DNA from: an uncultured Candidatus Saccharibacteria bacterium
GTDB lineage: Bacteria; Patescibacteriota; Minisyncoccia; Phycocordibacterales; GWA1-40-21
Direction: 5' to 3'
DNA length: 36,439 bases
Assembly (NCBI GenBank): GCA_964455475.1
Contig: CAYVWL010000002.1
Location: forward strand, 1-36,439
The position numbers were made by a program, and so were the translations under genes. Positions 204 through 30,726 of this stretch are shown here, in pieces (within the stretch, counting starts at the first letter, position 1; each line of letters begins with the position of its first letter). Below the pieces are notes generated by a model, which worked only from the letters and a program-made list of their open reading frames with translations, was not told where the DNA came from and made no database searches.

Positions 204-968
204 ATGGAACCAAAGGTGGAAAAGGGGCATATACACCCCATGACACAGTTTATTACGAGGGCCAACGCCATTTTTTATGAGCTGGGTTTTACCCTGGTAG
301 ACGGGCCGGAGTTGGAAACGGAGCATTATAACTTTGATGCCCTAAATGTGCCAAAGGATCACCCCGCCCGAGATATGCAGGACACTTTTTGGCTAAAACA
401 AAAACCCGAGGAAAAAGTGAGGAAGCTGATGCGCACACAGACCAGCCCAGTGCAGATCCGCTACATGGAAGAAAATAAACCACCATACAAAATGATTTGT
501 TTTGGTAAGGTGTATAGGAATGAAGCCACAGATGCTACCCATGAAATGGTTTTTCATCAGTTGGAAGGACTGTTTATTGACAAGGCCGTGACCATGGCTG
601 ATTTGAAATCCACCCTCAATACTTTTTTTGATAAATTTTTTGAAAGGGATGTAGAAATTCGTTTTCGCCCCAGCTTTTTTCCGTTTGTGGAGCCGGGCCT
701 GGAGGTGGATATTTCTTGTTTTATTTGCGGTAGAGGAAAAAAGTCTTCCCAAGAAAATTGTTCAGTGTGCAAAGGGACGGGCTGGGTAGAGGTGGCCGGG
801 GCGGGTATGGTGCATCCAAAAGTCCTGTCTGAAGTAAATCTGGATTCACGCGAGTGGCAGGGTTTTGCCTTTGGTATGGGGGTAGACCGGATTGTCATGC
901 TCAAATATGGTATTGATGATATTCGGCTGATCTATTCTGGTGATTTGAGATTAGTAAATCAATTTTAG
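204..968 (+). CDS. pheS: Phenylalanine--tRNA ligase alpha subunit, catalytic core only (254 aa)
   Basis: Class II aaRS core motifs are readable: HPARDMQDTFW, FRPSFFPFVEPG, GWVEVAGAGMVHP, GFAFGMGVDRIVMLKYGIDDIRL. A CxxC...CxxC knuckle (CFICG...CSVCKG) resembles that of Bacillus-type PheS. The usual N-terminal coiled-coil of about 90 aa is absent. Confidence 0.93.
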   Translation: MEPKVEKGHIHPMTQFITRANAIFYELGFTLVDGPELETEHYNFDALNVPKDHPARDMQDTFWLKQKPEEKVRKLMRTQTSPVQIRYMEENKPPYKMICFGKVYRNEATDATHEMVFHQLEGLFIDKAVTMADLKSTLNTFFDKFFERDVEIRFRPSFFPFVEPGLEVDISCFICGRGKKSSQENCSVCKGTGWVEVAGAGMVHPKVLSEVNLDSREWQGFAFGMGVDRIVMLKYGIDDIRLIYSGDLRLVNQF

Positions 969-1883: not shown

Positions 1884-3845
1884 ATGAAAGTTTCTTACAA
1901 ATGGTTACAGCAATATTTTGACGGGAAATTACCGGCCGTGGCGGAGGCAGTAAATGTTTTGACCATGAATTCTAGCGAAGTGGATGGTGTGGAAAAAGTG
2001 AAAGAAGACTACGTTTTGGACGTCAAGATTTTGCCAAATATGGCGCACAGCTGTCTCTGCCACCGGGGTATTGCTCGGGAATTTTCCGCCTTGCTGAATC
2101 TGCCGATGAAAAAATATTCTCGAGAATTTGTCCTGCCAGAATATCGTGAATTGGGACATATAAAAGAACTTGGAATAAGTAAGTTGAATTTGCAAATTAA
2201 GATTCAAAATTCCGGTGCCTGCCGGCGCTATATTGGCCGGGTAGTGGAAAATATAAAGATTGCCCCTTCGCCAGACTGGCTTCGTAATCGGCTTGAGGTT
2301 CTCGGCCAGCGGTCTATTAATAATCTGGTGGACGCGACAAACTTTGTGATGCTGGAGCTCGGTCAGCCTATGCATGTCTTTGATGCGGATAAAATAATGG
2401 GCAATACTATTGAGATAAAAATGGCCGGGGCGGGGGATGAGATAAAAACTTTGGATGGCAAGCATGTCGTATTAGACGACGGTGTTCTGACAATTTCCAA
2501 TAATAATAAAGCCCTGGCTATTGCTGGTATTAAAGGCGGGACCTTGGCGGAAATAGATGGAAAAACTAAAAATATTATTTTAGAATCGGCCAACTTTGAT
2601 CCGGTTTTAATCAGAAAGACGGCCCAGCGGATAAAAATCCAGACAGACGCTTCTAAGCGTTATGAAAATGAATTAACACCAGAATTGTGTGCTGAGGCGA
2701 TGGAGCTTTTAACCAAATTAATTTTAGAGATTGCCAGCACAGAAAATACCAAGTTGGGCAAAATGGTGGATATTTATCCAAATCCGGTGGGTCAAAATAT
2801 TCTTACCCTCTCCGTCAAAGAAGTAGAGAAACTGTTAGGGCTTAAGATAAAAGCTGGTGAGATAGCTGAGATATTCAAACGTTTTGATTTTATCTTTGAT
2901 AGGACAGGGGATGATTTTTCGGTGACGGTGCCGGTAGAACGTCTAGATCTGCGAATCAAGGAGGATCTGATAGAGGAGATCGGGCGAGTCTATGGTTATG
3001 AAAAGCTGGTTGATAATAAGGTAGAAAGTGGTAAGGAAAAAGGAAAAATAAATAAGACTTTTTATTATGCCAACAAAGTGCGTGAGATTTTAGTGAATCA
3101 AGGTTTTTCGGAAATATACGGTTATGCTTTTGCGGAAAAAGGCGATATTGAATTGGCCAATTCCGTGGCGCCAGAGAAAAAGTGGCTAAGGAATAATTTA
3201 TCCTCTGGAATTATGGATTATTTGGAATTCAACGCCCGTTATTCCGAACTTATAAATATGCCCCAGATAAAAATATTTGAGATCGGTAAGGTATTTAAAA
3301 TTGATGACGAGCATAACAATCTGGTCCTTGGTGTTAAAACGCCGAGTGGTAATAAAGGCTTGCCAAAGGATGAGGAAGTAATAAATAAAATGATTGAGAT
3401 TTTGGAGAAGGAATTGGATGCAAAATTAGTCAGAATAAATAAGGAGAAGGAGATAGCGGAGTTTAATTTTGACGAGCTCACCGCCAAATTGCCGGAAGCC
3501 AAGGCTTATGATACTGATTTGCCCCTGGCGGATAAAGACATGCGATTGAAAAAGATTTCCGTTTATCCTTTCTCTGTCCGTGATGTGGCGGTCTTTGTGC
3601 CAGAGGGTGTGGATCAGAAAACGGTGCAGGATATTATAGAGAAAGAGGCCGGTAATTTGCTCGTAAGGATCCGTCTTTTTGATGTCTTTACCAAAAAGTT
3701 CGGAACGGGCGGGGCCAAAACCTCTTATGCCTTTCGGCTGGTCTTGCAATCATATGAACATACTTTATCTGAAGAAGAGATCAATACTGCTATGGCCAAA
3801 ATCACGTCCAAGCTAAACGCCCAAACCGACTGGCAGGTACGCTAA
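1884..3845 (+). CDS. pheT: Phenylalanine--tRNA ligase beta subunit, short form (653 aa)
   Basis: Typical start MKVSYKWLQQYF. B3/4-like region (RRYIGRVVENIKIAPSPDWLRNRLEVLGQRSINNLVDATNFVMLELGQPMHVFD). B5-like region (VERLDLRIKEDLIEEIGRVYGYE). C-terminal FDX-ACB-like region (SVRDVAVFVPEG...LFDVF...SYAFRLVLQS). The OB-fold (tRNA_bind/EMAP-like) insert normally found after about residue 40 seems to be missing. Confidence 0.9.
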   Translation: MKVSYKWLQQYFDGKLPAVAEAVNVLTMNSSEVDGVEKVKEDYVLDVKILPNMAHSCLCHRGIAREFSALLNLPMKKYSREFVLPEYRELGHIKELGISKLNLQIKIQNSGACRRYIGRVVENIKIAPSPDWLRNRLEVLGQRSINNLVDATNFVMLELGQPMHVFDADKIMGNTIEIKMAGAGDEIKTLDGKHVVLDDGVLTISNNNKALAIAGIKGGTLAEIDGKTKNIILESANFDPVLIRKTAQRIKIQTDASKRYENELTPELCAEAMELLTKLILEIASTENTKLGKMVDIYPNPVGQNILTLSVKEVEKLLGLKIKAGEIAEIFKRFDFIFDRTGDDFSVTVPVERLDLRIKEDLIEEIGRVYGYEKLVDNKVESGKEKGKINKTFYYANKVREILVNQGFSEIYGYAFAEKGDIELANSVAPEKKWLRNNLSSGIMDYLEFNARYSELINMPQIKIFEIGKVFKIDDEHNNLVLGVKTPSGNKGLPKDEEVINKMIEILEKELDAKLVRINKEKEIAEFNFDELTAKLPEAKAYDTDLPLADKDMRLKKISVYPFSVRDVAVFVPEGVDQKTVQDIIEKEAGNLLVRIRLFDVFTKKFGTGGAKTSYAFRLVLQSYEHTLSEEEINTAMAKITSKLNAQTDWQVR

Positions 3846-3871: not shown

Positions 3872-5976
<2,105 letters not shown>

Positions 5977-6002: not shown

Positions 6003-9000
6003 GTGATGAAAAGGTTTCGACAATATAAAAATCTATTTATTTTTCTAGGAATATTTATATTCTTCTTTTTTATTTCAACCACGGACACTTTTGCTGCGAA
6101 CCGGTATTGGGTGGGGCCAAATAATGGTGATTTCAAGACAAATGCCAATTGGTCAACCTTATCTGGCGGTACTGGTGGCGCAAGTTATCCTCAGTCAGCA
6201 GATACGGCTATCTTTGACTCGGGAAGTAATAATTGTATTATTGCTGGTACAAATTTTACTATTGGTGTTGTTTCAATAACCAGTGGTTATTCTGGAACCA
6301 TAACAAACAATGTGACAACATTGACCGTCCCGAGCTTTTCTCAAGCGGGTGGCACATTTACAAATAACGTCAATTTGTCTTTGAGCACCACTTTTTCTTT
6401 ATCGGGAGGGGTATTTAACGCTGGGCCAGGTGTTAATGTTGGTGTTGGCACCTGGACACAGTCTGGAGGAACCTATAATCATAATAATGGAACCATTTCA
6501 TTTTGGGGGGCTAATACAATAAATGTACCGACTAGTATTACATTTTATAATTTAAATCTTGGAGCCGCTTCAGGTATTACTATAACCACTACTGCCGGCG
6601 ATACGCTGATCGTGGAGGGAACCCTTACCATGTGCACATACTCTGTGGCGACGGTCTTTACCGGGGGGACAATTGAAGCTAGAGGAAATATAAATATTCT
6701 CGCTAATACTAGTGGAACTACGGCTATCAAGGTTGGCGGAGGAGTAGCTACTACCACCTGGACGGGAAATACAAAAACCGTGAGTAATTCGGTAGAAATT
6801 GCCAAGACCGCCGGTACAGTAATAGATTTTGGTAGCGCACAAGCTTTTTTTGGGGGTAATTTTACCATCACCTCGGGAACTGTTTTAGCCCCTAGCACCA
6901 GAATGCATTTTTCTGGAGCTGGTTGGACACAAAATGGTGGAGTATTTACCCCTAATACTGGTGGTTATGTAAGTATGAATGGAAATATTACCTTGAATGT
7001 GCCAACGAATATTACTTTTTATAATTTCTATTATGGTGGTAGCACACTCAATCTTAGCGGTGATACAGTGATAGTTACCAACGCCTTTGACCCAGCTTGG
7101 TGGGGAACAGCTGGTGGAAGTACTATTAACAACGGAACAATTGAGGTGCAGGGAAATATGGTCTTGAGTGGTAATACCACCAACGGAGCAACTGGCGTCT
7201 TTAAATTTACTGGCACAGCTGATCAATCTATTTCCGGCAGTTTTACCTCTTACAATCCGGTGAATATAGCCAAGACCGGTGGGACTCTGACTGTGACTGG
7301 CATGGCCATGTATAATACTTTGACCTTTACTTCCGGTACAACAACCTTTTCTACCTTGACCAATTATTCTGCAACCGTCTTTAACGGTGGAGTGGTAAGC
7401 GGAACCTTTACAGCTTATTCTGGAAATGTAACCTATAATGGTGGTACTTTGACGGGCTTGTCCTTATCACTTGGTGGTAGTAATGCTTATATTTTAGGTA
7501 CGTTTTTTACGGTGGCAAATCTGACCGTCAGTAAGTCGAACGGGGCGTTTATAAATCCCGCCAACGCTGTTTATATTACCGTCACCGGTACCACCACCCT
7601 GTCGGACGGAGTAATTAGTAGTGACGCTGGGACATATAATGGCTATATCCTTGCGCAAGGGAATGTGGTAATCGGCTCGGGCTGGGATGCTGGTAGTTGT
7701 AGTGGAAGTCTACGCTTTGGCGGTACAAATGATCAAACGGTTTCAGCTAGTGCGGGTTTCTGTTCTGCTGTTTATATAAATAAAACTGGCGGTACCCTAA
7801 ATGTCGGTACCTGGACTGTTTCTTCAAGTCCTCTATATTTTCAGGCCGGGACGACGACTGGTTCATTGACAGCTTCTGCTAACAATATTACATATACGGC
7901 TGGTAATATATCTGGATTATCACTCACATTGTCTGGCGGAACCAAGTATATTTATGGTTCGCCGTTTACCGTGGCAAACTTGACCGTGAGTAAGACGAGC
8001 GGAAACGCTATAAATCTCGCCAACGCTGTTACTATTACCGTCACCGGTACCACCAACCTGTCGGACGGAGTGATAAGTACTGATGACGGAACTTTCAATG
8101 GTTATATTATCGCTCAAGGTAATGTAACCGTTGGAGCTAATTGGGACGCTGGTAGTTGCTATGGTAGTTTGCGTTTTACTGGCTCGGCTGATCAAACAGT
8201 CACCTCTAGCGCAGTTTTCTGTTCACCTATCTATGTGAATAAAAGTAGTGGCACTTTAAATATTGGTAACTGGACTAGCTCTGGAGCCATGTATTTCCAG
8301 GCGGGGACAGTCACTGGAAATATTACATCAGCTGGTGGAAATACTATTACATATAATGCTGGCGATATCAGTGCAGTAAATCTTACGGTCACTGGTATAG
8401 CTAGTGTGTTTGATGTCTCACCAAATGGTTCAGCCACGATTAATAGTTTGAATATGAACAAGGCCGGATCCACAGGATTTTATATTGGGTCAAGTGACAC
8501 CCTGATAGTGACCAGTACTACCACTCTTACTGACGGTTATTTCAATAGTAGTGCTTCATATACTGGTATTTTACAGGCACAAGGTGATGTGACTATTGCG
8601 TCCACTTTTGATAGCACTACTGCCTATGGAGGTTTACGATTTGCTGGCACTGCTAATCAAAATTTTTCATCTGCTATCTCCTGGACGGGCAATGTGTCGG
8701 TGACCAAGACAGCGGGGACAATCACTAATACCACTAATATTGTTCTGACCTCTTCTGCTATCACAGTACCAAGTGGGGCCACCTGGGATTTAAATGGTTT
8801 CAATTTTTCGCCAAGCGGTGGCTATACCATGGCTAGTGGTTCAACCCTGCGTTTAAAGGGAAGTGAAGTGACAGTGACTTCTCCAACATTAAGTTCTGGT
8901 AGTACGGTGGAGTATTATGGGACAGCTGTTTCGCAAACAATTAAGGCTTTCAACTACGCAAATAGTAGCTTGATTATCAATACCGGTGCCACGTCGGTGA

Positions 9001-11585
9001 ATTCACTGGCTGGAAATATCTCTGTTGCCACCACCACTATTACTTCTGGTATTTTATATTTGGCAGGATACAATCTCTCATCCACTGTCATTTCTAACAG
9101 CGGAACATTGCGATTAAAAGGTTCTGAAACTATCGCCTCTACTAATTATGGTGCCAATATTGGAGTAGTAGAATATATCGGTGATGGAGATGGCGCCTCG
9201 GATATTTATGGTATTAGCAATTTACCTTATCTTACTCTAAATCTAAACTCCACCGACAGTGCTGATATTTACAGTGATGCTGTTCCTCTGTCTATAACAA
9301 AATATAACAATGCTATTCCAAATACTTCGGACGGAGCCTCTACAGCAGGTAGGATACCGATTGGTACTTCAGGCAAGGGTGATGACGTGCAGATATATGG
9401 CTCGACAATTATTAAGGATGGAAGTATTTATAAGGCCTGGTATTCTGGATATGACGGTGCAACCTATAGAATATATTATGCCACCTCACCAGATGGCTTG
9501 GTTTGGACAAAGTATAATAATACTATACCTGCCAATTCAGACACCACTTCTACCGATGGCCGAATCCCTTTGGGTTCAAATGCCAGGGGAGATGATCTTC
9601 ATGTCTATGGACCAAATGTCATCAAGGATGGATCGACTTACAAAATGTGGTATAGCGGTCATGATGGAGCAAGTGTTAGGATTTTCTATGCTACTTCGCC
9701 AGACGGACTAACCTGGACAAAGTATAACAATGCCACTCCGAATGCCTCTGATACTACTTCAACCGATGGCCGAGTTCCGCTTGGTACTAATACTAAAGGT
9801 GATGATGCGAATACTTATTTCCCGTCAGTTATTTTAGAGGGCGGAACCTATAAGATGTGGTATGCCGGCAACGATGGTACGAATATTCGTATCTACTACG
9901 CCACCTCACCCGATGGCCTGGTCTGGACAAAGTATGATAATACTTCGCCAGCAAATTCCAATACCTCTTCCACAAACGGCCGAGTTCCGCTAGGGACAGA
10001 CACTTATGGTGATGATCTACATACTTATCAGCCGTCAGTCATTAAAGATATAAGTGGTCTGTATTTTATTCTATACACAGGCAATGATGGTACAAATGCG
10101 AGAATTTATTTAGCTTCTTCACCCGATGGTCTGGTGTGGACCAAGTATGGCAACACTACTCCGTCTGATTCTAATACAAATTCAACCGCTGGTCGCATAC
10201 CCATTGGTTCAAACACCAATGGTGACGATGTTGGCACTTATTGCCCCGTAATAATAAAGGATACAGATAATTATAAGATATGGTATTCAGGAAATGATGG
10301 GACAAATCTCTCACTATATTATGCCACTTCTCCATTTGGTCTAAATATTAATAATGATTTAAATGTTTCTGGTGGTGGTAATAGGCCGAGCGGACCAATA
10401 AATCTCGGCGGTAGTCTGGTTCAAACTGGCGGAACACTTTCAATGAATTATGTGGATTTAATTCTAAATGGTAGTAATCAGGCTCTCACTATCCTCGCCA
10501 CCACCACCCTCGCTAGTTTGAATAAATCTGTTATTTCGGCCGATACTTTAACCTTTACCGCTGGCGTGCCACTCGTCGTGACGGGAACCACCACCTTAAA
10601 TGGAATAGCTGATAATATTTTATCTCTCGTCTCATCCAGTCCAGAAACACAATGGCAATTTGATCCACAAGGTGGGAGAGATTTCTCTTACATAGATGTT
10701 ACGGACTCTTGGAATATAAATGCTGTGGAAATAGATTCTAGTGCTATCACTGGTTTTAATGATGGTGGAAATAATACCGGCTGGGGTTCTTCACAAGCTG
10801 TGGTAACTGTCGGTAAATCTGGCACACAAATCGCCACCACCACCATGCCAGTGACAAATCTTGACCTAGGTGGTGCCTTTACCTTAAACGCTACGGATGG
10901 TGATGCGGATATCACCTCCATCAAGATCAAACAAATCGGCTCTCTCGCTACCACCTCCATCACCAATGTGGAATTGTTCTACAAGGAAGAAGTGACATGT
11001 TCCACTAGTAGTTTGCCTGGAGGTGCTGTTTCCTTTGGTGTCGCTGACGCCTTTGATGAAAAGGGTATTGCCACCACTACCGGTAGTCTCACTCTGACGG
11101 ACGGTGTGCAAACCTGCCTTTATATTCAATATGATTTGCCGGACACCTACAGCACCTCCACCCTCGGGCGCAGTATTGATTTTGAAATTACCAATCCAGC
11201 CACCGATCTCACTGTCGATGGGGGAGCGGTCACCACCTCCGCCAAAGTAAATATCTCTGGCCGCACTATTGTCAGTACCACCGATATTACCTCCTTGCTT
11301 TCCTTAAAGTCTGGTGTAAATGCCGAGGATGTCACCGTCTTCTTCCTCCAAAATGATGCCGTCTGGAAAATGGTCAATGGTGGCACACCAATTCGTCTAA
11401 CAAACACTAATCTAAAAGTCCACTCCCTAACCTTCTCAGACTTTACGGCTGGTAGCAGTGGGGGCACAGTGAAAATCACCATGGTTATTTCCAATATTGA
11501 TGCTGGTACAGACCCTAATTTCCTCAGCGTCACCCGCACCTATACTACCACCGCTACGGTCAAGGCGTGGGGAGGGAATGATTAA
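6003..11585 (+). CDS. Giant secreted/surface repeat protein (1860 aa): signal anchor, beta-helix-like repeat modules, five propeller-like Asp-box repeats, C-terminal beta-rich region
   Basis: Uninterrupted 5.6-kb ORF. N-terminal hydrophobic segment LFIFLGIFIFFFFISTTDTFA, followed by RYWVGPNNGDFKTNANWS...GGTGGASYPQSADTAIF, a motif common at the start of large bacterial surface proteins. T/G/S/N-rich composition. Internal tandem repeats are listed separately. Confidence 0.85.
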   Translation: MMKRFRQYKNLFIFLGIFIFFFFISTTDTFAANRYWVGPNNGDFKTNANWSTLSGGTGGASYPQSADTAIFDSGSNNCIIAGTNFTIGVVSITSGYSGTITNNVTTLTVPSFSQAGGTFTNNVNLSLSTTFSLSGGVFNAGPGVNVGVGTWTQSGGTYNHNNGTISFWGANTINVPTSITFYNLNLGAASGITITTTAGDTLIVEGTLTMCTYSVATVFTGGTIEARGNINILANTSGTTAIKVGGGVATTTWTGNTKTVSNSVEIAKTAGTVIDFGSAQAFFGGNFTITSGTVLAPSTRMHFSGAGWTQNGGVFTPNTGGYVSMNGNITLNVPTNITFYNFYYGGSTLNLSGDTVIVTNAFDPAWWGTAGGSTINNGTIEVQGNMVLSGNTTNGATGVFKFTGTADQSISGSFTSYNPVNIAKTGGTLTVTGMAMYNTLTFTSGTTTFSTLTNYSATVFNGGVVSGTFTAYSGNVTYNGGTLTGLSLSLGGSNAYILGTFFTVANLTVSKSNGAFINPANAVYITVTGTTTLSDGVISSDAGTYNGYILAQGNVVIGSGWDAGSCSGSLRFGGTNDQTVSASAGFCSAVYINKTGGTLNVGTWTVSSSPLYFQAGTTTGSLTASANNITYTAGNISGLSLTLSGGTKYIYGSPFTVANLTVSKTSGNAINLANAVTITVTGTTNLSDGVISTDDGTFNGYIIAQGNVTVGANWDAGSCYGSLRFTGSADQTVTSSAVFCSPIYVNKSSGTLNIGNWTSSGAMYFQAGTVTGNITSAGGNTITYNAGDISAVNLTVTGIASVFDVSPNGSATINSLNMNKAGSTGFYIGSSDTLIVTSTTTLTDGYFNSSASYTGILQAQGDVTIASTFDSTTAYGGLRFAGTANQNFSSAISWTGNVSVTKTAGTITNTTNIVLTSSAITVPSGATWDLNGFNFSPSGGYTMASGSTLRLKGSEVTVTSPTLSSGSTVEYYGTAVSQTIKAFNYANSSLIINTGATSVNSLAGNISVATTTITSGILYLAGYNLSSTVISNSGTLRLKGSETIASTNYGANIGVVEYIGDGDGASDIYGISNLPYLTLNLNSTDSADIYSDAVPLSITKYNNAIPNTSDGASTAGRIPIGTSGKGDDVQIYGSTIIKDGSIYKAWYSGYDGATYRIYYATSPDGLVWTKYNNTIPANSDTTSTDGRIPLGSNARGDDLHVYGPNVIKDGSTYKMWYSGHDGASVRIFYATSPDGLTWTKYNNATPNASDTTSTDGRVPLGTNTKGDDANTYFPSVILEGGTYKMWYAGNDGTNIRIYYATSPDGLVWTKYDNTSPANSNTSSTNGRVPLGTDTYGDDLHTYQPSVIKDISGLYFILYTGNDGTNARIYLASSPDGLVWTKYGNTTPSDSNTNSTAGRIPIGSNTNGDDVGTYCPVIIKDTDNYKIWYSGNDGTNLSLYYATSPFGLNINNDLNVSGGGNRPSGPINLGGSLVQTGGTLSMNYVDLILNGSNQALTILATTTLASLNKSVISADTLTFTAGVPLVVTGTTTLNGIADNILSLVSSSPETQWQFDPQGGRDFSYIDVTDSWNINAVEIDSSAITGFNDGGNNTGWGSSQAVVTVGKSGTQIATTTMPVTNLDLGGAFTLNATDGDADITSIKIKQIGSLATTSITNVELFYKEEVTCSTSSLPGGAVSFGVADAFDEKGIATTTGSLTLTDGVQTCLYIQYDLPDTYSTSTLGRSIDFEITNPATDLTVDGGAVTTSAKVNISGRTIVSTTDITSLLSLKSGVNAEDVTVFFLQNDAVWKMVNGGTPIRLTNTNLKVHSLTFSDFTAGSSGGTVKITMVISNIDAGTDPNFLSVTRTYTTTATVKAWGGND
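7434..8810 (+). repeat. Three tandem 459-bp (153-aa) coding repeats inside the giant ORF
   Basis: Units start at 7434, 7893 and 8352, each beginning Y-N/T-G/A-G. Units 1 and 2 are highly similar (FTVANLTVSK..G.AIN.ANAV.ITVTGTT.LSDGVIS.D.GT.NGYI.AQGNV..G..WDAGSC.GSLRF.G..DQTV). Unit 3 has diverged. Earlier modules at similar spacing are marked by NVPT.ITFYN. Confidence 0.85.
9300..10349 (+). repeat. Five tandem 210-bp (70-aa) coding repeats with Asp-box-like SPDGLxWTK motifs (5-bladed beta-propeller candidate)
   Basis: Units start at 9300, 9510, 9720, 9930 and 10140. Consensus KYNN..P..SDT.ST.GR.PLG....GDD...Y.P.VIKDG..YKMWYSG.DG...RIYYATSPDGLVWT. Confidence 0.85.
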
Positions 11586-11607
11586 AATCACAACCGCCCC
11601 GTCCATC

Positions 11608-11629
11608 GGAATGTCCACCCCGCCTTAAC
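11608..11629. terminator. Perfect 9-bp GC-rich hairpin between the convergent giant ORF and rpsA
   Basis: CCCCGCCTT-AACC-AAGGCGGGG. It starts 23 nt after the giant ORF stop. No clean T-run, so terminator function is inferred from position only. Confidence 0.45.
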
Positions 11630-11656
11630 CAAGGCGGGGAAAGGGGACTCTAGTTT

Positions 11657-11718
11657 CGCCACTCCGCTTTCTCCGCCTTTTCTAAGGAGGAGTACCGAGT
11701 CTGCGAGGGGAGGTGGTG
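11657..11718 (-). repeat. Non-coding copy of the element found inside gyrB and the cysteine desulfurase gene, directly abutting the rpsA stop codon
   Basis: The reverse complement reads CACCACCTCCCCTCGCAGACTCGGTACTCCTCCTTAGAAAAGGCGGAGAAAGCGGAGTGGCG. It matches 28800-28846 at 42 of 47 positions without gaps (CCACCTC, TCGCAGACTCG, ACTCCTCCTTAGAAAAGG, GGAGA). Confidence 0.8.
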
Positions 11719-12858
11719 TTATTTCTTCACTGAATCGACAAATGACAACCCCATCTTTTGATTCTTAGCTTCAAAGAGTAAGATTTTGAAAGTATAGTTT
11801 TTGCCCAATTCCAATTTTTCCTTCATTTTTAATTCGGAACCAAATTCGGAAATATGCACCAAGCCAGAAATACCTTCCTCAATTGAGGCCAAGGCACCGT
11901 GCTTGTTAAACTTGATCACCACACCCTGCACCTCATCACCTTTCTTATATTTCTTATCGGCTTCCACCCAAGGATTTTCCTTTAAGGCTTTGATAGAGAG
12001 GGAAATCTTGCCGTCTTTTACTTCTATCACCTTCACCTGCACTTTCTCACCTACTTTATAGAAAGCGCGAGGGTTTTCCACCAGTGTCCAATCAATTTCA
12101 GAAATATGCACCAAGCCTTCCATCCCATCCTCAATCTTTACAAAGATACCAAAGTCTACAATACCGGTGATCTCACCTGCACAGATATCACCCAACTTGT
12201 ATTTCTCCGTCATCTTTTGCTTACCTTTCTTTTCAATATTTTTCTCAGAGAAAATCAGCTTGCCCTCTTTTGGTAGAGCAGTGATGATAGCCACCGATAT
12301 TTTCTGGCCGACTAATTTTTTCAATTCATCCAATATTTTATCCTTATCACCATCGTTGATTCTTGGATAATGCTCGGTCTTGAGCTGGGAGGCGGGGAGA
12401 AAGCCCTTGATTCCTTGCCAATTGATAATCAAACCACCCTTGTTGGCTTCTTCTACTGGTAATTCCAAAACGGTCTTTTCCTTGATGGCCTTCTCGGCTT
12501 CATCCCAGATCAGGGCTTGGCGCGCTTCCTTTAATGACAATTCAATATAACCTTCCTTGTTGCCATTGCCACTGTCCACCACCTTGGCGGCCACTTTGTC
12601 ACCAATATTTATTTTCTTGATAATATCGCGGGCATTGATAAATTCCTTACCAAAAATAATACCTGTCCCATATGGGAAGAGGTTTATATAAACGCAGGAT
12701 TTTTCCACCCCAATCACATCGCCTTCTACCACATCCCCAATAGAGGGTGGGTTAGCGCTCTTGTCCACAATCTTGGTCATCAAACTATCCTTCTTGAGCT
12801 TGATTGCCTTTTCCTCGGCTGTTGACTCATCCACAATTACTTTTGCTTTTTTTGCCAT
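11719..12858 (-). CDS. rpsA: 30S ribosomal protein S1 (four S1 domains, 379 aa)
   Basis: Repeated S1 OB-fold signatures, for example GDVVEGDVIGVEKSCVYINL, GDICAGEITGIVDFGIFVKIEDGMEGLVHISEI, GDEVQGVVIKFNKHGALASIEEGISGLVHISEF. Confidence 0.88.
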   Translation of the reverse strand: MAKKAKVIVDESTAEEKAIKLKKDSLMTKIVDKSANPPSIGDVVEGDVIGVEKSCVYINLFPYGTGIIFGKEFINARDIIKKINIGDKVAAKVVDSGNGNKEGYIELSLKEARQALIWDEAEKAIKEKTVLELPVEEANKGGLIINWQGIKGFLPASQLKTEHYPRINDGDKDKILDELKKLVGQKISVAIITALPKEGKLIFSEKNIEKKGKQKMTEKYKLGDICAGEITGIVDFGIFVKIEDGMEGLVHISEIDWTLVENPRAFYKVGEKVQVKVIEVKDGKISLSIKALKENPWVEADKKYKKGDEVQGVVIKFNKHGALASIEEGISGLVHISEFGSELKMKEKLELGKNYTFKILLFEAKNQKMGLSFVDSVKK

Positions 12859-13030: not shown

Positions 13031-13059
13031 CTTGACTTTTAGATTCAATTATTTTATTA
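13031..13059 (+). promoter_or_regulatory. Candidate promoter of the 88-aa ORF
   Basis: TTGACT (13031-13036), 17-nt spacer, TATTAT (13054-13059). It is followed by the SD-like GGAAAGGAG 5 nt before ATG 13088. Confidence 0.45.
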
Positions 13060-13087
13060 TTAATGGTAGAAAAGGAAAGGAGTACAT

Positions 13088-13354: not shown

Positions 13355-13356
13355 TG

Positions 13357-13560
13357 TACAAGGCGGGGGAAGGCAGGACCTCTCCTCGCCTTTTCTCGTG
13401 CCCAAAAAATCAACTGCCCCCAGCCCCTCCTCATTTGAGGAGGGGAGGAGAAACCCCTCCCACCTCCCCTTGTCAGGGGAGGCCGTTCCGAGTTTCCCCC
13501 TGACAAGGGGGTAAGGGGGTTTCTTTCACCTTCCCTTCTTAGTTAAGAAGGGATTGAGGG
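13357..13560. repeat. Cluster of at least four perfect GC-rich pyrimidine-arm/purine-arm mini-hairpins
   Basis: H1 CCCCTCCTCA-TT-TGAGGAGGGG (13424-13445). H2 CCTCCCCT-TGTC-AGGGGAGG (13463-13482). H3 CCCCCT-GACA-AGGGGG (13496-13511). H4 CCCTTCTTA-GT-TAAGAAGGG (13533-13552). The H2 core CCCCTTGTCAGGGG is the exact reverse complement of the H3 core CCCCTGACAAGGGG. The 5' part (AAGGCGGGGGAAGG...CTCCTCGCCTTTTCT) resembles 11620-11685. Confidence 0.85.
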
Positions 13561-13563
13561 AAG

Positions 13564-13592
13564 TTGTATTTGACCTCTGAATTTGATATAAT
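13564..13592 (+). promoter_or_regulatory. Promoter with extended -10 close to the start codon of the MBL-fold gene
   Basis: TTGTAT (13564-13569), 17-nt spacer, TGaTATAAT (13584-13592). ATG at 13602, a 9-nt gap. Confidence 0.5.
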
Positions 13593-13601
13593 AGTAGGGT
13601 C

Positions 13602-14240
13602 ATGATCATCACTTATCAAGGAGTGGAGTTTTTCAAAGTTCAATTTGGGGATACTATCCTCGCTTTCAACCCTATTTCCAAGGAGAGTAAGTTCAAGCCC
13701 ACTCGTTTCTTTGCGGACGTGGCACTCGTTTCTGCCAACCATCCTGATTTTAATGGTGTGGAAAATTTGTCCTATAACGGCAAGGATCCCTTGGTCATTT
13801 CCGGCCCCGGCGAATATGAGACCAAGGGTGTTTTTATTAAAGGTTTCCAGTCCAAGACCTTGTATGATAAAAAAGAGAAAATAAATACGGTCTATACTGT
13901 GGTGCTCGAGGGTATGACCTTGTGTTTTTTGGGTGCGCTGTCTGACGAAAAACTGTCACCGGAATTTATGGAGGCCATAGAGGATATTGATATTTTATTT
14001 TTACCGATTGGGGATGATGGTGTGCTGGATGTGGCCAAGGCCAATAAATTGGCGGTCACCTTGGAGCCGAAAATAATTATTCCAATGCATTATGGCGAGG
14101 TGGGGATGGAGAATGCGTTGAAAAAGTTTTTGAAAGAAGCGGGGGAGGAAGGGGTCAAGCCAGTGGATAAGCTGACCATCAAGAAGAAAGATTTGGAGGG
14201 CAAGGAAGGCGAGGTGGTAGTACTAGAGGCACAAAAATAA
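13602..14240 (+). CDS. MBL-fold (UPF0173/YtkL-like) protein with a degenerate metal-binding motif
   Basis: Overall pattern MIITYQGVEFFKV...FNP, DILFLPIGDDGVLDV and IIIPMHYG resembles UPF0173 metal-dependent hydrolases. The HxHxDH position reads SANHPDF. Confidence 0.6.
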   Translation: MIITYQGVEFFKVQFGDTILAFNPISKESKFKPTRFFADVALVSANHPDFNGVENLSYNGKDPLVISGPGEYETKGVFIKGFQSKTLYDKKEKINTVYTVVLEGMTLCFLGALSDEKLSPEFMEAIEDIDILFLPIGDDGVLDVAKANKLAVTLEPKIIIPMHYGEVGMENALKKFLKEAGEEGVKPVDKLTIKKKDLEGKEGEVVVLEAQK

Positions 14241-23404: not shown

Positions 23405-24400
23405 GTCAAGGAAAATGTTATGGTTCAATAGCTTGGAAACACTTCCCCATATATACTATGAAAATGTCATACACAAAGAATCCGTATCTCCCCAAGGTCC
23501 GTCAGGACGCCGCCGACTTGGTCCGTCGCGGTTGGGGCGTGAGAAAAGTCGCCAGATATGTCGGGGTCAGTCCGGGGACGATCACCAAGTGGGTTAAGAG
23601 AGCTAAGGTAATTGGCTACCACCCCATCCCCACCCTGTCCTCACGACCAAAACATCATCCGCGACAACTGAGCAGTGAATTGGTTTGGAAAATATATCAT
23701 AAACGAGTTCAGATTAAACGGAGCGCCGAGGTGGTCAGACAGGAATTGATCAACGAAGGAATACCGGTGTCCCTGTCTTCGGTCAAACGAACTTTAGACC
23801 GGATGGGTTTGCTAAACAAGAGAAGTCCGTGGAAACGATATCATTTGCCAATCCAGCGACCAGACGTCCAAAAACAAGGTGATTTGGTGCAAATTGACAC
23901 TGTTCACCTTCTGAACGAACATGGGAAAAGAGTGTACGTTTTCACTTTGCTTGATGTGTATTCACGATATGCTTTTGCTCGCGCCTACGAACGAGCGACT
24001 TCAGCCACCGCTTTTCGTTTTCTGAATTGGTGTCAGAAGCAAGTAGATTTCAAATTCCAAACCGTCCAAAGTGACAACGGTTCCGAGTTCGCTGGTTGGT
24101 TCAGTGATCATATTAAATCCGTCCACCGACATACCAGAGTGCGAAGACCAAATGACAATGGACACCTGGAGAGATTCAACCGCACGGTGCAAGAGGAATG
24201 TTTGGACAAGGTGGAAAAGAAAGTTTCGAAGATCAATCAAGCCCTGACAAAATACATGAAATATTACAACGAAAAACGTCTGCATTTTGGGTTGAATTTG
24301 CAGACACCTTTACAAGCTTTAACTAACAAGTGTTTCCAAGGTATTGATTAGAATACGGGAAAATAAGGAGAGAGCAAAAGCGAGCGACTATATTTTCCTA
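23405..24400 (+). mobile_element. IS481-family-like insertion sequence (boundaries approximate)
   Basis: Single DDE transposase ORF. An imperfect terminal inverted repeat is possible: AAGGAAAATGTTATGG near 23411 against the reverse complement of CGACTATATTTTCCTAT near 24385-24401 (an AGGAAAAT core plus scattered matches). No direct repeats seen. Confidence 0.5.
23458..24351 (+). CDS. IS481-family DDE transposase (HTH + rve integrase core)
   Basis: N-terminal HTH (RRGWGVRKVARYVGVSPGTITKWVKR). DDE candidates in LVQIDTVHL, VQSDNGSEF and NGHLERFNRTVQEE, with retroviral-integrase-like spacing. Confidence 0.8.
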   Translation: MKMSYTKNPYLPKVRQDAADLVRRGWGVRKVARYVGVSPGTITKWVKRAKVIGYHPIPTLSSRPKHHPRQLSSELVWKIYHKRVQIKRSAEVVRQELINEGIPVSLSSVKRTLDRMGLLNKRSPWKRYHLPIQRPDVQKQGDLVQIDTVHLLNEHGKRVYVFTLLDVYSRYAFARAYERATSATAFRFLNWCQKQVDFKFQTVQSDNGSEFAGWFSDHIKSVHRHTRVRRPNDNGHLERFNRTVQEECLDKVEKKVSKINQALTKYMKYYNEKRLHFGLNLQTPLQALTNKCFQGID

Positions 24401-24664: not shown

Positions 24665-24672
24665 AAGTTTTG

Positions 24673-24753
24673 TGGGCGAGGGGAGACTTGAACTCCCATG
24701 CCTTGCGGCACTAGCTCCTAAGGCTAGCGTGTCTACCGTTTCACCACTCGCCC
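24673..24753 (-). tRNA. tRNA-Leu (anticodon TAG), type II with long variable arm
   Basis: Hand-folded: GGGCGAG TG GTG AAACGGTAGA CAC G CTAGC CTTAGGA GCTAG TGCCGCAAGGCAT GGGAG TTCAAGT CTCCC CTCGCCC A. 81 nt, CCA not encoded. Confidence 0.9.
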
Positions 24754-24840
24754 GATAAAATAATATATTACACTTGTCGTCACAAGTATTTTTCTGTTGA
24801 AAAATCTCGCGACCCCGCCTCGGCACGTCTGCCTCCGGCT

Positions 24841-24893
24841 CGGACAGTGTAAAACAAAATTATGTGAAAAATTTTTTATGTTTACACTGTCCG
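24841..24893 (-). repeat. 13-bp perfect inverted repeat pairing the 3' end of tRNA-Lys with its trailer
   Basis: CGGACAGTGTAAA (24841-24853) and TTTACACTGTCCG (24881-24893). The latter includes the discriminator and the last 3 acceptor nucleotides of tRNA-Lys. Confidence 0.8.
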
Positions 24894-24962
24894 CCCAGTA
24901 GGGATCGAACCTACGACCTTATCCTTAAGAGGGATCTGCTCTACCAGCTGAGCTATGGGCGG
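24890..24962 (-). tRNA. tRNA-Lys (anticodon CTT)
   Basis: Hand-folded: CCGCCCA TA GCTC AGCTGGTA GAGC A GATCC CTCTTAA GGATA AGGTC GTAGG TTCGATC CCTAC TGGGCGG A. 73 nt, with a C1-G72 first pair and one mismatch at the top of the anticodon stem. Confidence 0.85.
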
Positions 24963-25023
24963 ATATTATTAAAATAAACCTTCGTTGATATAAAATAACA
25001 GAAATTAACAATTAAATCAACTG

Positions 25024-25107
25024 TGCCCGGAATCGGAATCGAACCGATATGGTGTTGCCACCGAGAGATTTTAAGTCTCTTGCGTCTACCTATTTCGCCA
25101 CCCGGGC
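25024..25107 (-). tRNA. tRNA-Leu (anticodon TAA), type II
   Basis: Hand-folded: GCCCGGG TG GCG AAATAGGTAGA CGC A AGAGA CTTAAAA TCTCT CGGTGGCAACACCAT ATCGG TTCGATT CCGAT TCCGGGC A. 84 nt. Confidence 0.9.
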
Positions 25108-25142
25108 ATATTATATTTTCTGATAGTTGTCCACTACCATTG

Positions 25143-25215
25143 AGGCTCAGGCCGGGGTTGAACCGGCGCATAACAGTTTTGCAGACTGTCGCGTTAACCA
25201 CTTCGCCACTGAGCC
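25143..25215 (-). tRNA. tRNA-Cys (anticodon GCA)
   Basis: Hand-folded: GGCTCAG TG GCGA AGTGGTTA ACGC G ACAGT CTGCAAA ACTGT TATGC GCCGG TTCAACC CCGGC CTGAGCC T. 73 nt, with discriminator U73 as expected for Cys. Confidence 0.9.
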
Positions 25216-28545: not shown

Positions 28546-29841
28546 ATGAGAAAGGTGATTTATTTGGACCATTCAGCCACCACGCCGGTGAGAAAGGAGG
28601 TGCTGACCGCGATGAAGCCGTTTTGGACGGAGAACTTTGGTAATCCTGGATCCATTACTAAAATTGGGGTGAGGGCCAGGCAGGCCGTGGAAGCTTCACG
28701 CAGGAAAATTGCAGAAATATTGAAAGCCCGAGCGCAGGAAATTATTTTTACTTCTGGTGGCACCGAGTCCAATAATCTGGCGATTTTTGGTTTGGTGAAC
28801 CACCTCGTCTCGCAGACTCGCCACTCCTCCTTAGAAAAGGAGGAGAGACCGAAGATTTCAGACTTGCATTTCATTACTACCAATATCGAACACAGTTCCG
28901 TCACGGAATGTTTCAAGGAATTGGAGAGAAGGGGAGCCGGGGTGGATTATTTGGCCGTCAATGAAAAGGGACTAGTAGAGCCTAAGGATTTGCGAAAAAT
29001 TATTAAGCCTAACACCGTTCTTATTTCCGTGGGTTATGCCAACAATGAAATTGGCACCATTCAGCCGATCAAGGAAATCGCCAAAGAAATCCGTCATGCC
29101 AGGAAGAGTCACAAAAGCTTGGCCTTTGGTATGTCCAAAAGCCAAGCCTTTGTGTCAAATATTTTTCCTCTTTTTCATACCGATGCCAGTCAGGCGGGTC
29201 TGTATTGTAATTTGAATTTAAATGAACTGGGTGTGGACTTGCTCACCCTAGATGCGCAGAAAATTTACGGACCAAAAGGGGTTGGTCTTTTATATAAAAG
29301 AGCGGGGGTGGAAATAGCACCAACTATTTTTGGTGGGGGACAGGAGAGTGGTTTGCGTTCGGGCACAGAAAATGTGCCTGGCGTTGTCGGCTTCTCCATA
29401 GCACTCGAATTGTGTCGCCAATCTCTTCTCTTCCCCTCATTAGATAAGGAGGGGCTAGGGGCGGTTGAGAAACTCCGTAATTATTTCTGGCAGAAAATTC
29501 AAAAAGAAATTCCTAGTGCAATTTTAAATGGTGATTTGGAAAATCGCCTGCCGAATAATTTAAATATTTCCATTCCCGGTATTGATTCCGAATTTACTGT
29601 TTTATGTTTGGATGAGGCTGGTATCATTTGCTCCACGCGCAGTGCTTGTGGCCACGGCACGGACGGCTCCCTTGTCATCCGCGCCCTCTATTCCGGACAA
29701 GGACAGTCCTTGTCCGAGATTGATATTCGAGCAAAGTCCAGCCTACGTTTTTCTCTAGGTCCGGAAATTACTAAAAAAGAGATAGACTTTGTGGTTACCA
29801 CTCTAAAAAACCTTATTTCTAGGGTTAAAATTGGGTCTTAA
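28546..29841 (+). CDS. Cysteine desulfurase (NifS/IscS family, class V aminotransferase), lengthened by hairpin-encoded segments
   Basis: IYLDHSATTP, FTSGGTESNNLAI, LFHTDASQA, PLP-lysine context LDAQKIYGPKGVGLLY, catalytic Cys context STRSACGHG. At 431 aa it is longer than the roughly 380-405 aa I recall for the family. Confidence 0.9.
   Translation: MRKVIYLDHSATTPVRKEVLTAMKPFWTENFGNPGSITKIGVRARQAVEASRRKIAEILKARAQEIIFTSGGTESNNLAIFGLVNHLVSQTRHSSLEKEERPKISDLHFITTNIEHSSVTECFKELERRGAGVDYLAVNEKGLVEPKDLRKIIKPNTVLISVGYANNEIGTIQPIKEIAKEIRHARKSHKSLAFGMSKSQAFVSNIFPLFHTDASQAGLYCNLNLNELGVDLLTLDAQKIYGPKGVGLLYKRAGVEIAPTIFGGGQESGLRSGTENVPGVVGFSIALELCRQSLLFPSLDKEGLGAVEKLRNYFWQKIQKEIPSAILNGDLENRLPNNLNISIPGIDSEFTVLCLDEAGIICSTRSACGHGTDGSLVIRALYSGQGQSLSEIDIRAKSSLRFSLGPEITKKEIDFVVTTLKNLISRVKIGS
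28800..28847 (+). repeat. Hairpin-forming repeat element in frame inside the cysteine desulfurase gene
   Basis: CCACCTCGTCTCGCAGACTCGCCACTCCTCCTTAGAAAAGGAGGAGA. Hairpin at 28824-28845. The 27-mer is identical to gyrB 5726-5752. 42 of 47 positions match the reverse complement of 11657-11718. Encodes ...[14 protein letters not shown]... Confidence 0.85.
29117..29147 (+). repeat. Second in-frame inverted repeat inside the cysteine desulfurase gene
   Basis: GCTTGGC (29117-29123) and GCCAAGC (29141-29147), embedded in near-duplicate 15-mers AAAAGCTTGGCCTTT / AAAAGCCAAGCCTTT. Encodes KSLAFGMSKSQAF just before the conserved LFHTDA. Confidence 0.6.
29433..29454 (+). repeat. Third in-frame mini-hairpin inside the cysteine desulfurase gene
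   Basis: CCCCTCATT-AGAT-AAGGAGGGG (8 of 9 pairs). Same arm/loop layout and same reading frame (FPSLDKEG) as the CTCCTCCTT-AGAA-AAGGAGGAG element (SSLEKEE). Confidence 0.6.
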
Positions 29842-29860
29842 GCCAAATACTCAAAAACTC

Positions 29861-29889
29861 TTGACAAAAAAGATGAATGGTGCTATACT
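29861..29889 (+). promoter_or_regulatory. Near-consensus sigma70 promoter with extended -10
   Basis: TTGACA (29861-29866), 17-nt spacer, TGcTATACT (29881-29889). Confidence 0.7.
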
Positions 29890-29957
29890 TGTTAAAGCTA
29901 GAAATACAGCAACGAAACAGCACACACAGAGTAATCTGCAAACAAGGAGAACGCGGT

Positions 29958-30260
29958 ATGATAACCGTGAAGTTGGTTAGCCAAGACAAGGCGTCGGAGA
30001 TGAGATTCGGTACCCCACTCGAAGCGTTCGTGCATTTCAGAATATGTCAGAGCAATCCGTGTGGCCACATCAAGATCACGGTGACGTCTGTGACGCGGGA
30101 CAGTGTTTCTCTTCATGAAGAGCGCCCCCTTCTTGGTCCGGAGGATATTACCTATACCGGTCCGGAGGAGGAGATGGCCATTCTTCAGTACGCAGCGATG
30201 CACATGTTCCAGGCCGAACTGCAGCCTGCGATTGAGCGACTTACTGCCGGTGCGGCGTAG
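29958..30260 (+). CDS. Hypothetical small protein (100 aa) of G+C-rich, foreign-looking composition
   Basis: ATG 29958 is preceded by AAGGAGA at about 8 nt and lies downstream of the predicted TSS. The longer ORF start (29877) sits inside the promoter spacer. No family recognised. Confidence 0.5.
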   Translation: MITVKLVSQDKASEMRFGTPLEAFVHFRICQSNPCGHIKITVTSVTRDSVSLHEERPLLGPEDITYTGPEEEMAILQYAAMHMFQAELQPAIERLTAGAA

Positions 30261-30307
30261 GGTCATCTACCGCGAATTGGTTGGCTCGGGAAGGTACTGA
30301 GCAACAA

Positions 30308-30361
30308 GTCCACTTTGTGGGCGGGGGAAAGTCCCGTCTGCACAGGTGGGCTTTTTCTTTT
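30308..30361 (+). terminator. GC-rich structured region ending in a T-run (putative terminator of the small G+C-rich gene)
   Basis: GTCCAC-TTT-GTGGGC, then a GGGCGGG...CCCGTCT stem with G-U pairs, then GGTGGGCTTTTTCTTTT. The fold is not a clean single hairpin. Confidence 0.45.
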
Positions 30362-30420
30362 GAATAATATTTTAATTTTCCTTGCAAGTTGTAACTGGAA
30401 TTATATAATTAGATGTAGAT

Positions 30421-30726
30421 ATGTTTTATACCTATGTTTTACGAAGTCTAAAAAATGCCAGTCTGTATACTGGTTATACAAATGATTTGCGAGCAAGGGT
30501 CCATGAGCATAACAGTGGACTTTCTGAATATACAAAGAAATATTTACCATACGAGTTAATCTATTATGAATCGTGTTTAGATGAGGGTGATGCTAGGGCG
30601 AGAGAAAAACAGTTAAAGACGGGGTTGGGGAAAAGGTATTTAAAATTAAGGTTAAGGAGGTTTTTTAGAAAAAGCATTGTGGGCATGGATCCCGTTCGAT
30701 GTTCAGGGAGGAAAGAGTCTATATAA
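30421..30726 (+). CDS. Small GIY-YIG (URI-domain) nuclease family protein
   Basis: FYTYVLRS...LYTGYTNDLRARVHEHNSG ... YYESC...ARAREKQLK. This is the classic layout of stand-alone GIY-YIG proteins of about 90 aa. Confidence 0.8.
   Translation: MFYTYVLRSLKNASLYTGYTNDLRARVHEHNSGLSEYTKKYLPYELIYYESCLDEGDARAREKQLKTGLGKRYLKLRLRRFFRKSIVGMDPVRCSGRKESI

Follow-up and report, generated by a model that had tools for sequence, protein, structure and literature searches.

Probable in-frame copies of small palindromic repeats in a cysteine desulfurase gene of a candidate phyla radiation bacterium

Known palindromic repeats and the host gene

Rickettsia palindromic elements (RPEs) are dispersed repeats that lie between genes and, in frame, inside unrelated housekeeping genes, and no transposase has been assigned to them (PMC10969869). 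Repetitive extragenic palindromes (REPs) and their doublet arrangements (REPINs) are short, G+C-rich, imperfect palindromes in high copy number, often set as inverted doublets, and one small gene, RAYT, is flanked by the repeats (PMC3116915). Bacterial MITEs (miniature transposable elements with inverted repeats; ERIC, BOX, Nezha and others) are small, non-coding and multi-copy, have inverted ends, and are occasionally intragenic with an open frame (PMC10969869; see also PMC2229807 and PMC3184786). Here, we analyzed a 36,439-nucleotide stretch of contig CAYVWL010000002.1 (hereafter the window), from a Paceibacteria/Parcubacteria lineage of the candidate phyla radiation (CPR), in which a cysteine desulfurase gene carries four hairpin segments. 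Judging from the sequence, we consider it very likely that the hairpin segments are in-frame copies of small, non-coding, palindromic repeats dispersed in this lineage. Repeat-family membership, in-frame indels, presence or absence among syntenic orthologs, and excess DNA conservation support this reading directly. Searches of the available literature found no description of such elements in CPR, Parcubacteria or Patescibacteria.

Like RPEs, the window elements are palindromic, occur both in spacers and in frame in unrelated protein genes, and add a conserved peptide, apparently at structurally permissive positions. The two differ in the host (CPR here, Alphaproteobacteria for RPEs) and in unit size, which is 18-57 nt in genes here versus ~100-150 bp in RPEs. 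Additionally, one gene has been hit four times here, and which element has hit a given loop varies between orthologs; the arms resemble Shine-Dalgarno (SD) and anti-SD strings, and a DUF559 nuclease is a candidate associated enzyme. By host phylum and unit size, membership in a described RPE family is very unlikely, and the likeness is one of mode of working. The first-pass annotation had regarded such insertions as an unusual route of protein evolution; unusual it is, although not unprecedented, as the RPEs illustrate (PMC10969869).

The host gene (28546..29841, + strand) is an intact open reading frame (ORF) of 431 aa for a type I (NifS/IscS-like) cysteine desulfurase. Pfam PF00266 (Aminotran_5, aminotransferase class-V) matched over the whole protein (1.8e-60), with segment 2 splitting the match into two stretches. 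The best NCBIfam matches were TIGR03402 NifS (3.5e-105) and the IscS models (1e-85), every one under its equivalog cut-off. The closest solved structure was PDB 9wer (4e-75), with which the catalytic motifs align. An AlphaFold2 model, with 45 orthologs as input, reached a predicted local distance difference test score (pLDDT) of 84.7 and a predicted template-modelling score (pTM) of 0.86, and Foldseek placed it at target-normalised template-modelling scores of 0.85-0.91 to NFS1, IscS and NifS, that is, in the IscS-type two-domain fold. Invariant in the 45 orthologs were H116, D213, K239 (the lysine for pyridoxal phosphate, PLP, in DAQKIYGPKG), C368 (the catalytic cysteine in the SxC loop, SAC) and R401, and Q216 was at least 90% conserved; the gene looks functional from its sequence.

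The orthologs come from CPR (Paceibacteria/Taylorbacteria-type) metagenome bins and keep the order RbfA, IF-2, DUF4446, cysteine desulfurase, Trypsin_2 protease and ClpB. The window protein has 431 aa versus 387-397 aa in insert-free orthologs. The four hairpin segments sum to 35-40 residues, which is the length excess over these orthologs, and on this reckoning they account for the length of the protein.

The hairpin segments of the cysteine desulfurase

The first-pass annotation had described three inverted repeats in this gene. An inverted-repeat search found all three, at 28824-28845, 29110-29154 and 29433-29454, in the reading phases described (H-S-S-L-E-K-E-E in segment 1, P-S-L-D-K-E-G in segment 3), together with a fourth that had been missed, at 29687-29723. 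Segment 1 (28797..28852, + strand) is a full-length half-unit of a repeat that we call family A, in frame, made of AACCACCTC..TCGCAGACTCGCCA, the hairpin CTCCTCCTT-AGAA-AAGGAGGAG and AGA. It adds a net 10 aa and matched the family A model with an nhmmer E of 9e-17; its inverted repeat, with 9/9-nt arms and a 4-nt loop, codes for HSSLEKEE. Segment 2 (29110..29154, + strand) is an in-frame hairpin of a second family, B, with 20-nt arms that are 90% complementary, a 5-nt loop and GCTTGGC/GCCAAGC as the core of its inverted repeat; it encodes HKSLAFGMSKSQAFV. Segment 3 (29428..29466, + strand) is a truncated family A-type hairpin, in frame, CCCCTCATT-AGAT-AAGGAGGGG plus CTAGGGGCGGTT, encoding FPSLDKEGLGAV, with 10-nt arms matching at 90%. 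It aligned with only the hairpin part of the family A model (nhmmer E 6e-4 on the - strand and 5e-3 on the + strand). Segment 4 (29687..29723, + strand), also in frame, has 18-nt arms matching at 83% around a perfect 10-bp core at ~29694-29716, encodes YSGQGQSLSEI, and sits 14 residues past the catalytic C368. The insert-spanning peptides are SQTRHSSLEK, SLAFGMSK, FPSLDK and SGQGQSLSEIDIR.

The exact 22-mer of segment 1 had three occurrences in the window versus 0.00 expected, and the degenerate arm-loop-arm motif had seven sites versus 0.12 expected matches. Compared with dinucleotide shuffles, segment 2 (minimum free energy, MFE, -26.2 kcal/mol; z -7.1) and segment 4 (z -4.6) folded far outside the shuffles. 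The result for segment 1 was marginal (z -1.9), because its purine/pyrimidine-skewed composition folds well anyway. The fold of segment 3 was not significant (z -0.65), and the significance of this segment comes from homology (nhmmer E 6e-4).

The idea that the three annotated segments are extra relative to NifS/IscS proteins held up, as the alignments with 9wer and with the orthologs gave clean indels at all three, and neither the profile nor the ortholog alignments placed all three on conserved family positions. Gaps against 9wer occurred at all four segments (11+4, 19, 5+1 and 2+3+3 residues), and all four places are indel columns in the 45-ortholog alignment. Six of the 45 orthologs have segment 1, as a clean 10-aa block; segment 3 corresponds to a 6-aa gap versus both 9wer and insert-free orthologs, and segment 4 to an 8-aa gap versus 9wer that is also gapped versus most orthologs. 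The comparison of orthologs suggested by the first-pass annotation revealed presence/absence polymorphism of the segments among syntenic orthologs. Sites 2, 3 and 4 are hypervariable, with palindrome-like peptides that differ by ortholog (QGQTLNPQKGLTL, QGSAFGNSKSLAL, FPLLRRGGVPSLRGG, YKGFAFKGEAF), and some orthologs are empty; at site 4, other orthologs have family B-like hairpins.

These alignments also bear on whether the segments are old parts of the CPR enzyme that were deleted in most relatives. At site 4, P0097, P0108, P0111 and P0119, which are more distant orthologs, have a segment as long as that of the window protein and likewise ending in EIDxRAKS, and a poorly resolved neighbour-joining (NJ) tree leaves room for such a history. 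However, none of the four segments occurs in solved IscS, NifS and NFS1 structures, and segments 1-3 are missing from outgroup orthologs; intergenic repeats share homology with the segments (below), and the element DNA looks far younger than the gene. Altogether, we regard an ancestral origin as very improbable.

In the AlphaFold2 model, pLDDT is low to moderate across the segments, which are modelled as coil or extra helices. Segment 1 is coil (pLDDT ~53), segment 2 an added helix-turn-helix (H175-192/H198-206), segment 3 a low-confidence break between two helices (pLDDT <50 at residues 294-300), and segment 4 a loop. The net insert lengths are multiples of three (30, about 33-48, 18 and 24 nt). 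From the open frames, these lengths and one shared phase that avoids the TAA/TAG of the loop, we infer that the inserts are translated. They are presumably near-neutral.

Could the hairpins instead be skipped by ribosomal bypassing or removed from the RNA? Bypassing of GC-rich hairpins inserted in coding sequence occurs in some mitochondria ('byp' elements) and at T4 gene 60, and the hairpin here contains an SD-like string. However, every in-gene copy is open in its host frame, and none of the inserts is out of frame or contains a stop, as a programmed bypass would entail. For the TTAGAAAA loop, two forward phases are open, and the forward copies are all in one of them, which avoids TAA/TAG. 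Read from the sequence, the segments are not flanked by a matching pair of take-off and landing codons with a stop following the first. We find untranslated inserts scarcely credible. More generally, GC-rich mobile hairpins in AT-rich mitochondrial genomes (GC clusters, double-hairpin and 'byp' elements) occupy intergenic DNA, rRNA variable regions and protein genes. They differ from the present elements in being organellar and without sequence relation, and byps are untranslated and need no frame. Inteins or mini-introns, an assembly artefact and bypassing were all rejected, as the frames are open, the segments small and independent assemblies in agreement.

Dispersed repeat families, turnover and a nuclease association

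Segments 1-3 share DNA homology with repeats in gyrB, an intergenic spacer, other CPR genomes, RsmE and ClpB, which agrees with the insertion of in-frame hairpin elements proposed in the first-pass annotation. For these three segments, an origin as in-frame copies of dispersed palindromic repeats is highly probable; for segment 4, the chances are about even.

The family A unit of ~57 nt comprises an end sequence (ACAACC[G/A]CC..TCGCAGACTC..CCA, also given as ACAACCGCC), a 9-10-bp hairpin and a purine tail; an example of an empty target site is GTGAATAATTTAGAAAAGAAAGGAG. Read from the sequence, the hairpin arms are anti-SD-like and SD-like (CCTCCTT / AAGGAGG). Three window copies share ~50 nt, which extends beyond the palindrome itself, and the hairpin 22-mer of segment 1 recurs exactly at 5730 in gyrB and with one mismatch at 11671. 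In gyrB (gene 3913..5976), a half-unit lies in frame at 5705..5759 (+ strand; nhmmer E 7e-9; exact 22-mer) and encodes HSSLEKEE in the phase of segment 1; it falls in a stretch (residues 153-188 of the queried fragment) that could not be aligned with S. aureus GyrB. An intergenic inverted doublet lies between convergent genes at 11590..11720, with half-units at 11590-11647 (+) and 11663-11720 (-) (nhmmer E 4e-9 and 6e-16). This doublet is REPIN/MITE-like, with outer ends ACAACCGCCCC / GGGGAGGTGGTGT, and folds as one hairpin (MFE -56 kcal/mol, z -3.2). The convergent arrangement recurs in six other loci, and also in L005 with a weaker partner match.

We scanned one genome per species, across 185,579 species, with the 24-nt pattern TCGCAGACTCNNNACYCCKCCTTA. 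The scan returned 19 loci, all in CPR metagenome-assembled genomes (MAGs), nine of them in one Taylorbacteria MAG. A family A profile built from the pattern-scan loci and run by nhmmer over 655 kb of loci gave 38 half-units of ~57 nt. About 29 of the 38 lie outside long ORFs, 14 pair up in seven convergent doublets (~115-135 bp) whose outer ends, ACAACC[G/A]CC[C/T]C.., are inverted, and eight are in frame within long ORFs, where the copies are single half-units without the second end. The in-ORF units occur in cysteine desulfurase (at site 1 in three orthologs and, reversed, at site 3 in one), gyrB, ClpB (at the C-terminus, in L005 only), RsmE (L033) and a PolA-like 815-aa ORF (L019). All forward in-frame copies share one phase, which avoids the TAA/TAG of the loop. 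The units are highly similar across MAGs of different species, and degenerate or truncated copies exist, namely segment 3 and a half-copy in L093. At site 3 of the L001 ortholog there is a full-length reverse unit (E 1e-9), to whose hairpin part window segment 3 aligns, the rest being missing. The segment 3 hairpin plus 12 nt of flank recurs reversed in RsmE of L045/L048, with 30 of 34 nt identical as counted by eye.

Rfam searches, with the gathering threshold on the whole window and an E-value threshold on 11500-13700 and 29800-30450, returned only five tRNAs and noise, and a described RNA family was rejected as the identity of family A for want of an Rfam match. In the window, 13345-13567 holds an intergenic cluster of G/C-rich hairpins (CCCCTCCTCATTTGAGGAGGGG, CCCCTTGTCAGGGGAGG.., CCCTTCTTAGTTAAGAAGGG; best 46-nt window -32.5 kcal/mol) that resembles degenerate family A relatives, yet falls under the nhmmer threshold. 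Another short palindromic repeat, GTCATTCCCGCGxAGGCGGGAATCC-like, adjoins family A units in L011 (~2820-2870), L014 (~300-330) and L102 (~1340-1370); as it is present in several CPR loci, the hairpin repeats of these genomes must comprise more than two families.

Family B is a longer hairpin of the CAAGG..CCTTG type. Segment 2 is homologous in DNA to two near-identical copies in L003, at ortholog sites 2 and 3, and to copies that the metagenome pattern scan found in the RsmE genes of L033, L045 and L048. Across 244 kb of related loci, family B occurred only inside the cysteine desulfurase gene. The pattern scan for this family returned 67 loci, mostly chance palindromes or terminators in unrelated organisms. 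Only eight matches to GGCCTTTGG-N5-CCAAAAGCC had family B flanks (loci L027, L033, L045, L048, L072 and L092), all in cysteine desulfurase or RsmE ORFs and all in the same phase (QGSAFGxSKSLAL). The RsmE orthologs (L033 8113-8982, L048 12173-12955, L045 682-1464) carry several in-frame elements. Besides family B (N-Q-S/G-SAFGNSKSLALV in L033 and L048/L045), that of L033 has a family A copy and a further G/P-rich block, and that of L048/L045 has a reversed copy of the segment 3 hairpin at the same loop of the protein, ahead of VGPEGGW.

As in REPs and REPINs, family A units form convergent doublets that fold as one hairpin, and DUF559 genes are flanked by them as RAYT genes are by REPINs. However, REPs and REPINs are extragenic by definition, unlike the in-frame family A units, and the flanked gene here is a PD-(D/E)xK-type DUF559. 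No RAYT (Y1 transposase) was noticed in the part of the ORFs in the window and loci that was scanned, which included no complete genome. Family A doublets have terminal inverted repeats as MITEs do, whereas the in-gene copies are half-units or fragments and not complete elements from one terminal repeat to the other. No parent insertion sequence with matching ends was found, the IS481-like element of the window being unrelated. At the copy flanks there is no obvious common target-site duplication, and no filled/empty pair is close enough. By these comparisons, the repeat families would belong to neither RPEs nor REPINs, which appear to be their closest functional analogues.

Several features point to turnover of the elements. 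Among three orthologs, including the L001 and L002 copies, segment 1 DNA (51 nt) is 92-98% identical, as against 68-72% for the genes. Where residues are identical, third-codon positions match in 16/16, 13/15 and 14/16 cases inside segment 1 versus 46-58% outside it. Carriers of segment 1 are scattered on the ortholog NJ tree, each beside non-carriers. In the gene of ortholog P0003, the same family B element is present at two sites; P0002 carries family A in forward orientation at site 1 and in reverse at site 3. In L093 (2540-2570, ortholog P0025), site 1 is half-filled (AAT AAT TTA GAA AAG GAG GAG AGT AAG), with the family A loop and right arm (TTAGAAAAGGAGGAGAGTAAG) and without the left 30 nt, which may be due either to deletion of a part or to an incomplete conversion tract. 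In L004, the empty site 1 (TTAGAAAAGAAAGGAG) is already similar to the loop and right arm. Since different elements occupy the same sites in different orthologs, the sites have been hit repeatedly. Such a picture is consistent with gain, loss and conversion that recurred with the help of homology and drew on other copies, and selection on DNA or RNA is compatible with it too.

Such selection is the core of another explanation, in which the hairpins are kept for their DNA or RNA structure and the in-gene copies are selected, for example, as a nuclease or defence recognition site, an uptake-type signal, or an SD/anti-SD stem that modulates translation or mRNA stability; a mobile origin would be compatible with it. 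Its attraction is that synonymous positions in segment 1 are nearly invariant between genes saturated elsewhere (16/16 versus 46%), that the arms are exact SD/anti-SD-like strings, that the family B-like copies found so far are all coding, and that doublets sit at the 3' ends of convergent genes. The similarity of family A units across the MAGs of different species would suit a signal as well, although a family of active repeats under constraint from its enzyme would be expected to show it just as well, an argument made for REPINs (PMC3116915). Moreover, each segment is absent from most orthologs, one site can hold unrelated elements in different orthologs, some copies are degenerate or truncated (segment 3 and the L093 half-copy), and no Rfam family matches. 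We therefore regard a functional signal as unlikely.

The partial sites could also suggest palindromes generated locally, by template switching or snap-back synthesis that copies adjacent sequence inverted, with no mobile element. Segment 4 has no copy elsewhere (648 kb searched), many orthologs have half or mini palindromes at site 2 (e.g., QGxTL = CAAGGnnnACCTTG), the empty site of L004 resembles loop plus right arm, and L093 has the right arm without the left. Mini-palindromes are, however, equally explained by central deletion of longer ones. Copies in unrelated genes, spacers and genomes match segments 1-3 over 30-57 nt, non-palindromic flanks included, which local synthesis cannot produce. 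Local origin is already contradicted for segments 1-3, and we consider it improbable.

The reading as dispersed repeats has its own difficulties. No mobilising enzyme is encoded in the window, where the only transposase has unrelated ends. Neither the ortholog comparison nor the flanks of 25 copies defined a target-site duplication or an exact element boundary, because the flanks of every site are themselves variable. There is no filled/empty pair in near-identical genomes, the closest ortholog being ~72% identical, and the NJ tree of orthologs is star-like and poorly resolved. The near-perfect conservation of segment 1 DNA could reflect selection on the nucleic acid, and the patchy distribution could reflect repeated loss instead of repeated gain. 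None of the eight family B-like copies is intergenic, which is odd for a purely selfish repeat, in a small and pattern-limited sample. Segment 4 is a real hairpin at an indel, with no dispersed copy in 648 kb searched with up to four mismatches, and the same-length segment of P0097, P0108, P0111 and P0119 suggests that it may be partly ancestral.

We also compared the window genes with their syntenic counterparts. Among the 16 genes with comparators, all four hairpin segments were in the cysteine desulfurase. The other window-specific insertions of at least 5 aa were short (5-16 aa), lay in two pilin genes and the protease gene, and had no strong predicted hairpin (MFE -4 to -10 kcal/mol); IF-2 and ClpB had no window-specific insertion of at least 5 aa in this comparison. 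Presumably, the cysteine desulfurase is an insertion hot spot because of its four permissive loops. A window-wide energy scan gave 81 windows at or below -20 kcal/mol versus ~10 in block shuffles, and most of the strong coding folds outside gyrB and cysteine desulfurase are not at testable indels.

DUF559 is a large family of unknown function. The loci found with the element pattern contained three DUF559 (Vsr-like PD-(D/E)xK) genes, each of which has family A units on both sides. Two further homologues were picked from 2115 relatives found by homology search, without prior knowledge of their flanks; in both, a unit lies no more than ~35 bp upstream of the start, and in one a further unit overlaps the 3' end. 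Altogether, all five genes inspected, from one subfamily (L015 4238-4591; L021 4640-4990, - strand; L025 1152-1526; L094 1501-1854; L102 1501-1914), have a family A half-unit within ~50 bp upstream, with its end sequence facing the gene, and in four of them a second unit lies at the 3' end or overlaps it. The last codons and the stop of the gene come from the element in L025 and L102.

This link is an association by gene neighbourhood. Tentatively, family A units might be non-autonomous partners of the nuclease that spread by homing-like gene conversion and not by transposition, and the pairing might then possibly be REPIN/RAYT-like on a different enzyme fold. The PD-(D/E)xK clade with DUF559 also includes a group I intron homing endonuclease (PMC3424549). 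That enzyme type, I-Bth0305I (Vsr-like/DUF559 clade), is a precedent for selfish copy-by-repair spread by this fold, whereas no intron is present here and the DUF559 link comes from gene neighbourhood. If true, the partnership would explain why independent lineages have repeatedly gained an insertion at one and the same codon, why element DNA is nearly identical within genes that have diverged, and how partial 'co-conversion' alleles like the one in L093 came about.

Taking the segments as copies of dispersed repeats, we propose that element copies land at many places in the genome. The survivors inside genes would be those that keep the frame, avoid the TAA/TAG of the loop, have a length divisible by three and lie where the protein is permissive, in surface loops or at helix ends. 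Four such sites, repeatedly hit by different elements, would be available in the cysteine desulfurase, and the inserts would be translated as short hydrophilic loops or a helical hairpin that leave the PLP and cysteine-loop chemistry intact. Our best guess for the insertion step is nuclease-initiated, homology-assisted copying from another element copy, possibly through the element-associated DUF559 nuclease.

Other features of the window and meaning of the inserts

An IS481/IS3-like insertion sequence (23425-24347) encodes a DDE (rve) transposase (23458..24351), has 20-nt terminal inverted repeats at 23425-23444 and 24328-24347, and adjoins a four-tRNA cluster (24672-25215). We rejected it as mobiliser or parent of the hairpin elements, as its terminal repeats are unrelated to their ends. 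Downstream of the cysteine desulfurase, the region 29842-30726 begins with an unannotated ~580-bp spacer (GC 0.48) that has a promoter-like TTGACA-17-TATACT near 29860-29890 and a strong hairpin within 30277-30358 (-29 kcal/mol) with no Rfam match. A GIY-YIG nuclease gene (30421..30726) comes after it. Spacer and gene part the desulfurase from the protease gene, the two being directly adjacent in six orthologous loci, and in L093 the corresponding place is taken by a GIY-YIG gene with 75% identity; the whole looks like a mobile cassette. A Bro-N domain protein gene (1029-1883) lies between pheS (204..968) and pheT (1884..3845), which are normally adjacent, and looks like an inserted phage-type gene. 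Two strong hairpins, at 6412-6469 and 8089-8140 (-22 kcal/mol), lie inside a 1860-aa ORF (6003..11585), the second with a near-perfect 19-bp stem.

CPR genomes are tiny and thought to be streamlined, yet essential genes here (cysteine desulfurase, GyrB, ClpB, RsmE and PolA-like) hold selfish-looking hairpin repeats in frame. The repeated hits on surface loops provide a natural map of permissive insertion sites in a PLP enzyme. The inserts are a source of lineage-specific peptide loops and will confuse homology-based annotation and length-based quality checks of MAG proteins. To our knowledge, the enzyme behind RPEs has remained unknown; the DUF559 flanking suggests a testable candidate enzyme for such elements and, if the partnership is true, would give the first enzymatic handle on the making of RPE-type in-frame palindromic inserts. 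The elements extend the phenomenon known from Rickettsia RPEs to an unrelated phylum, with much smaller units.

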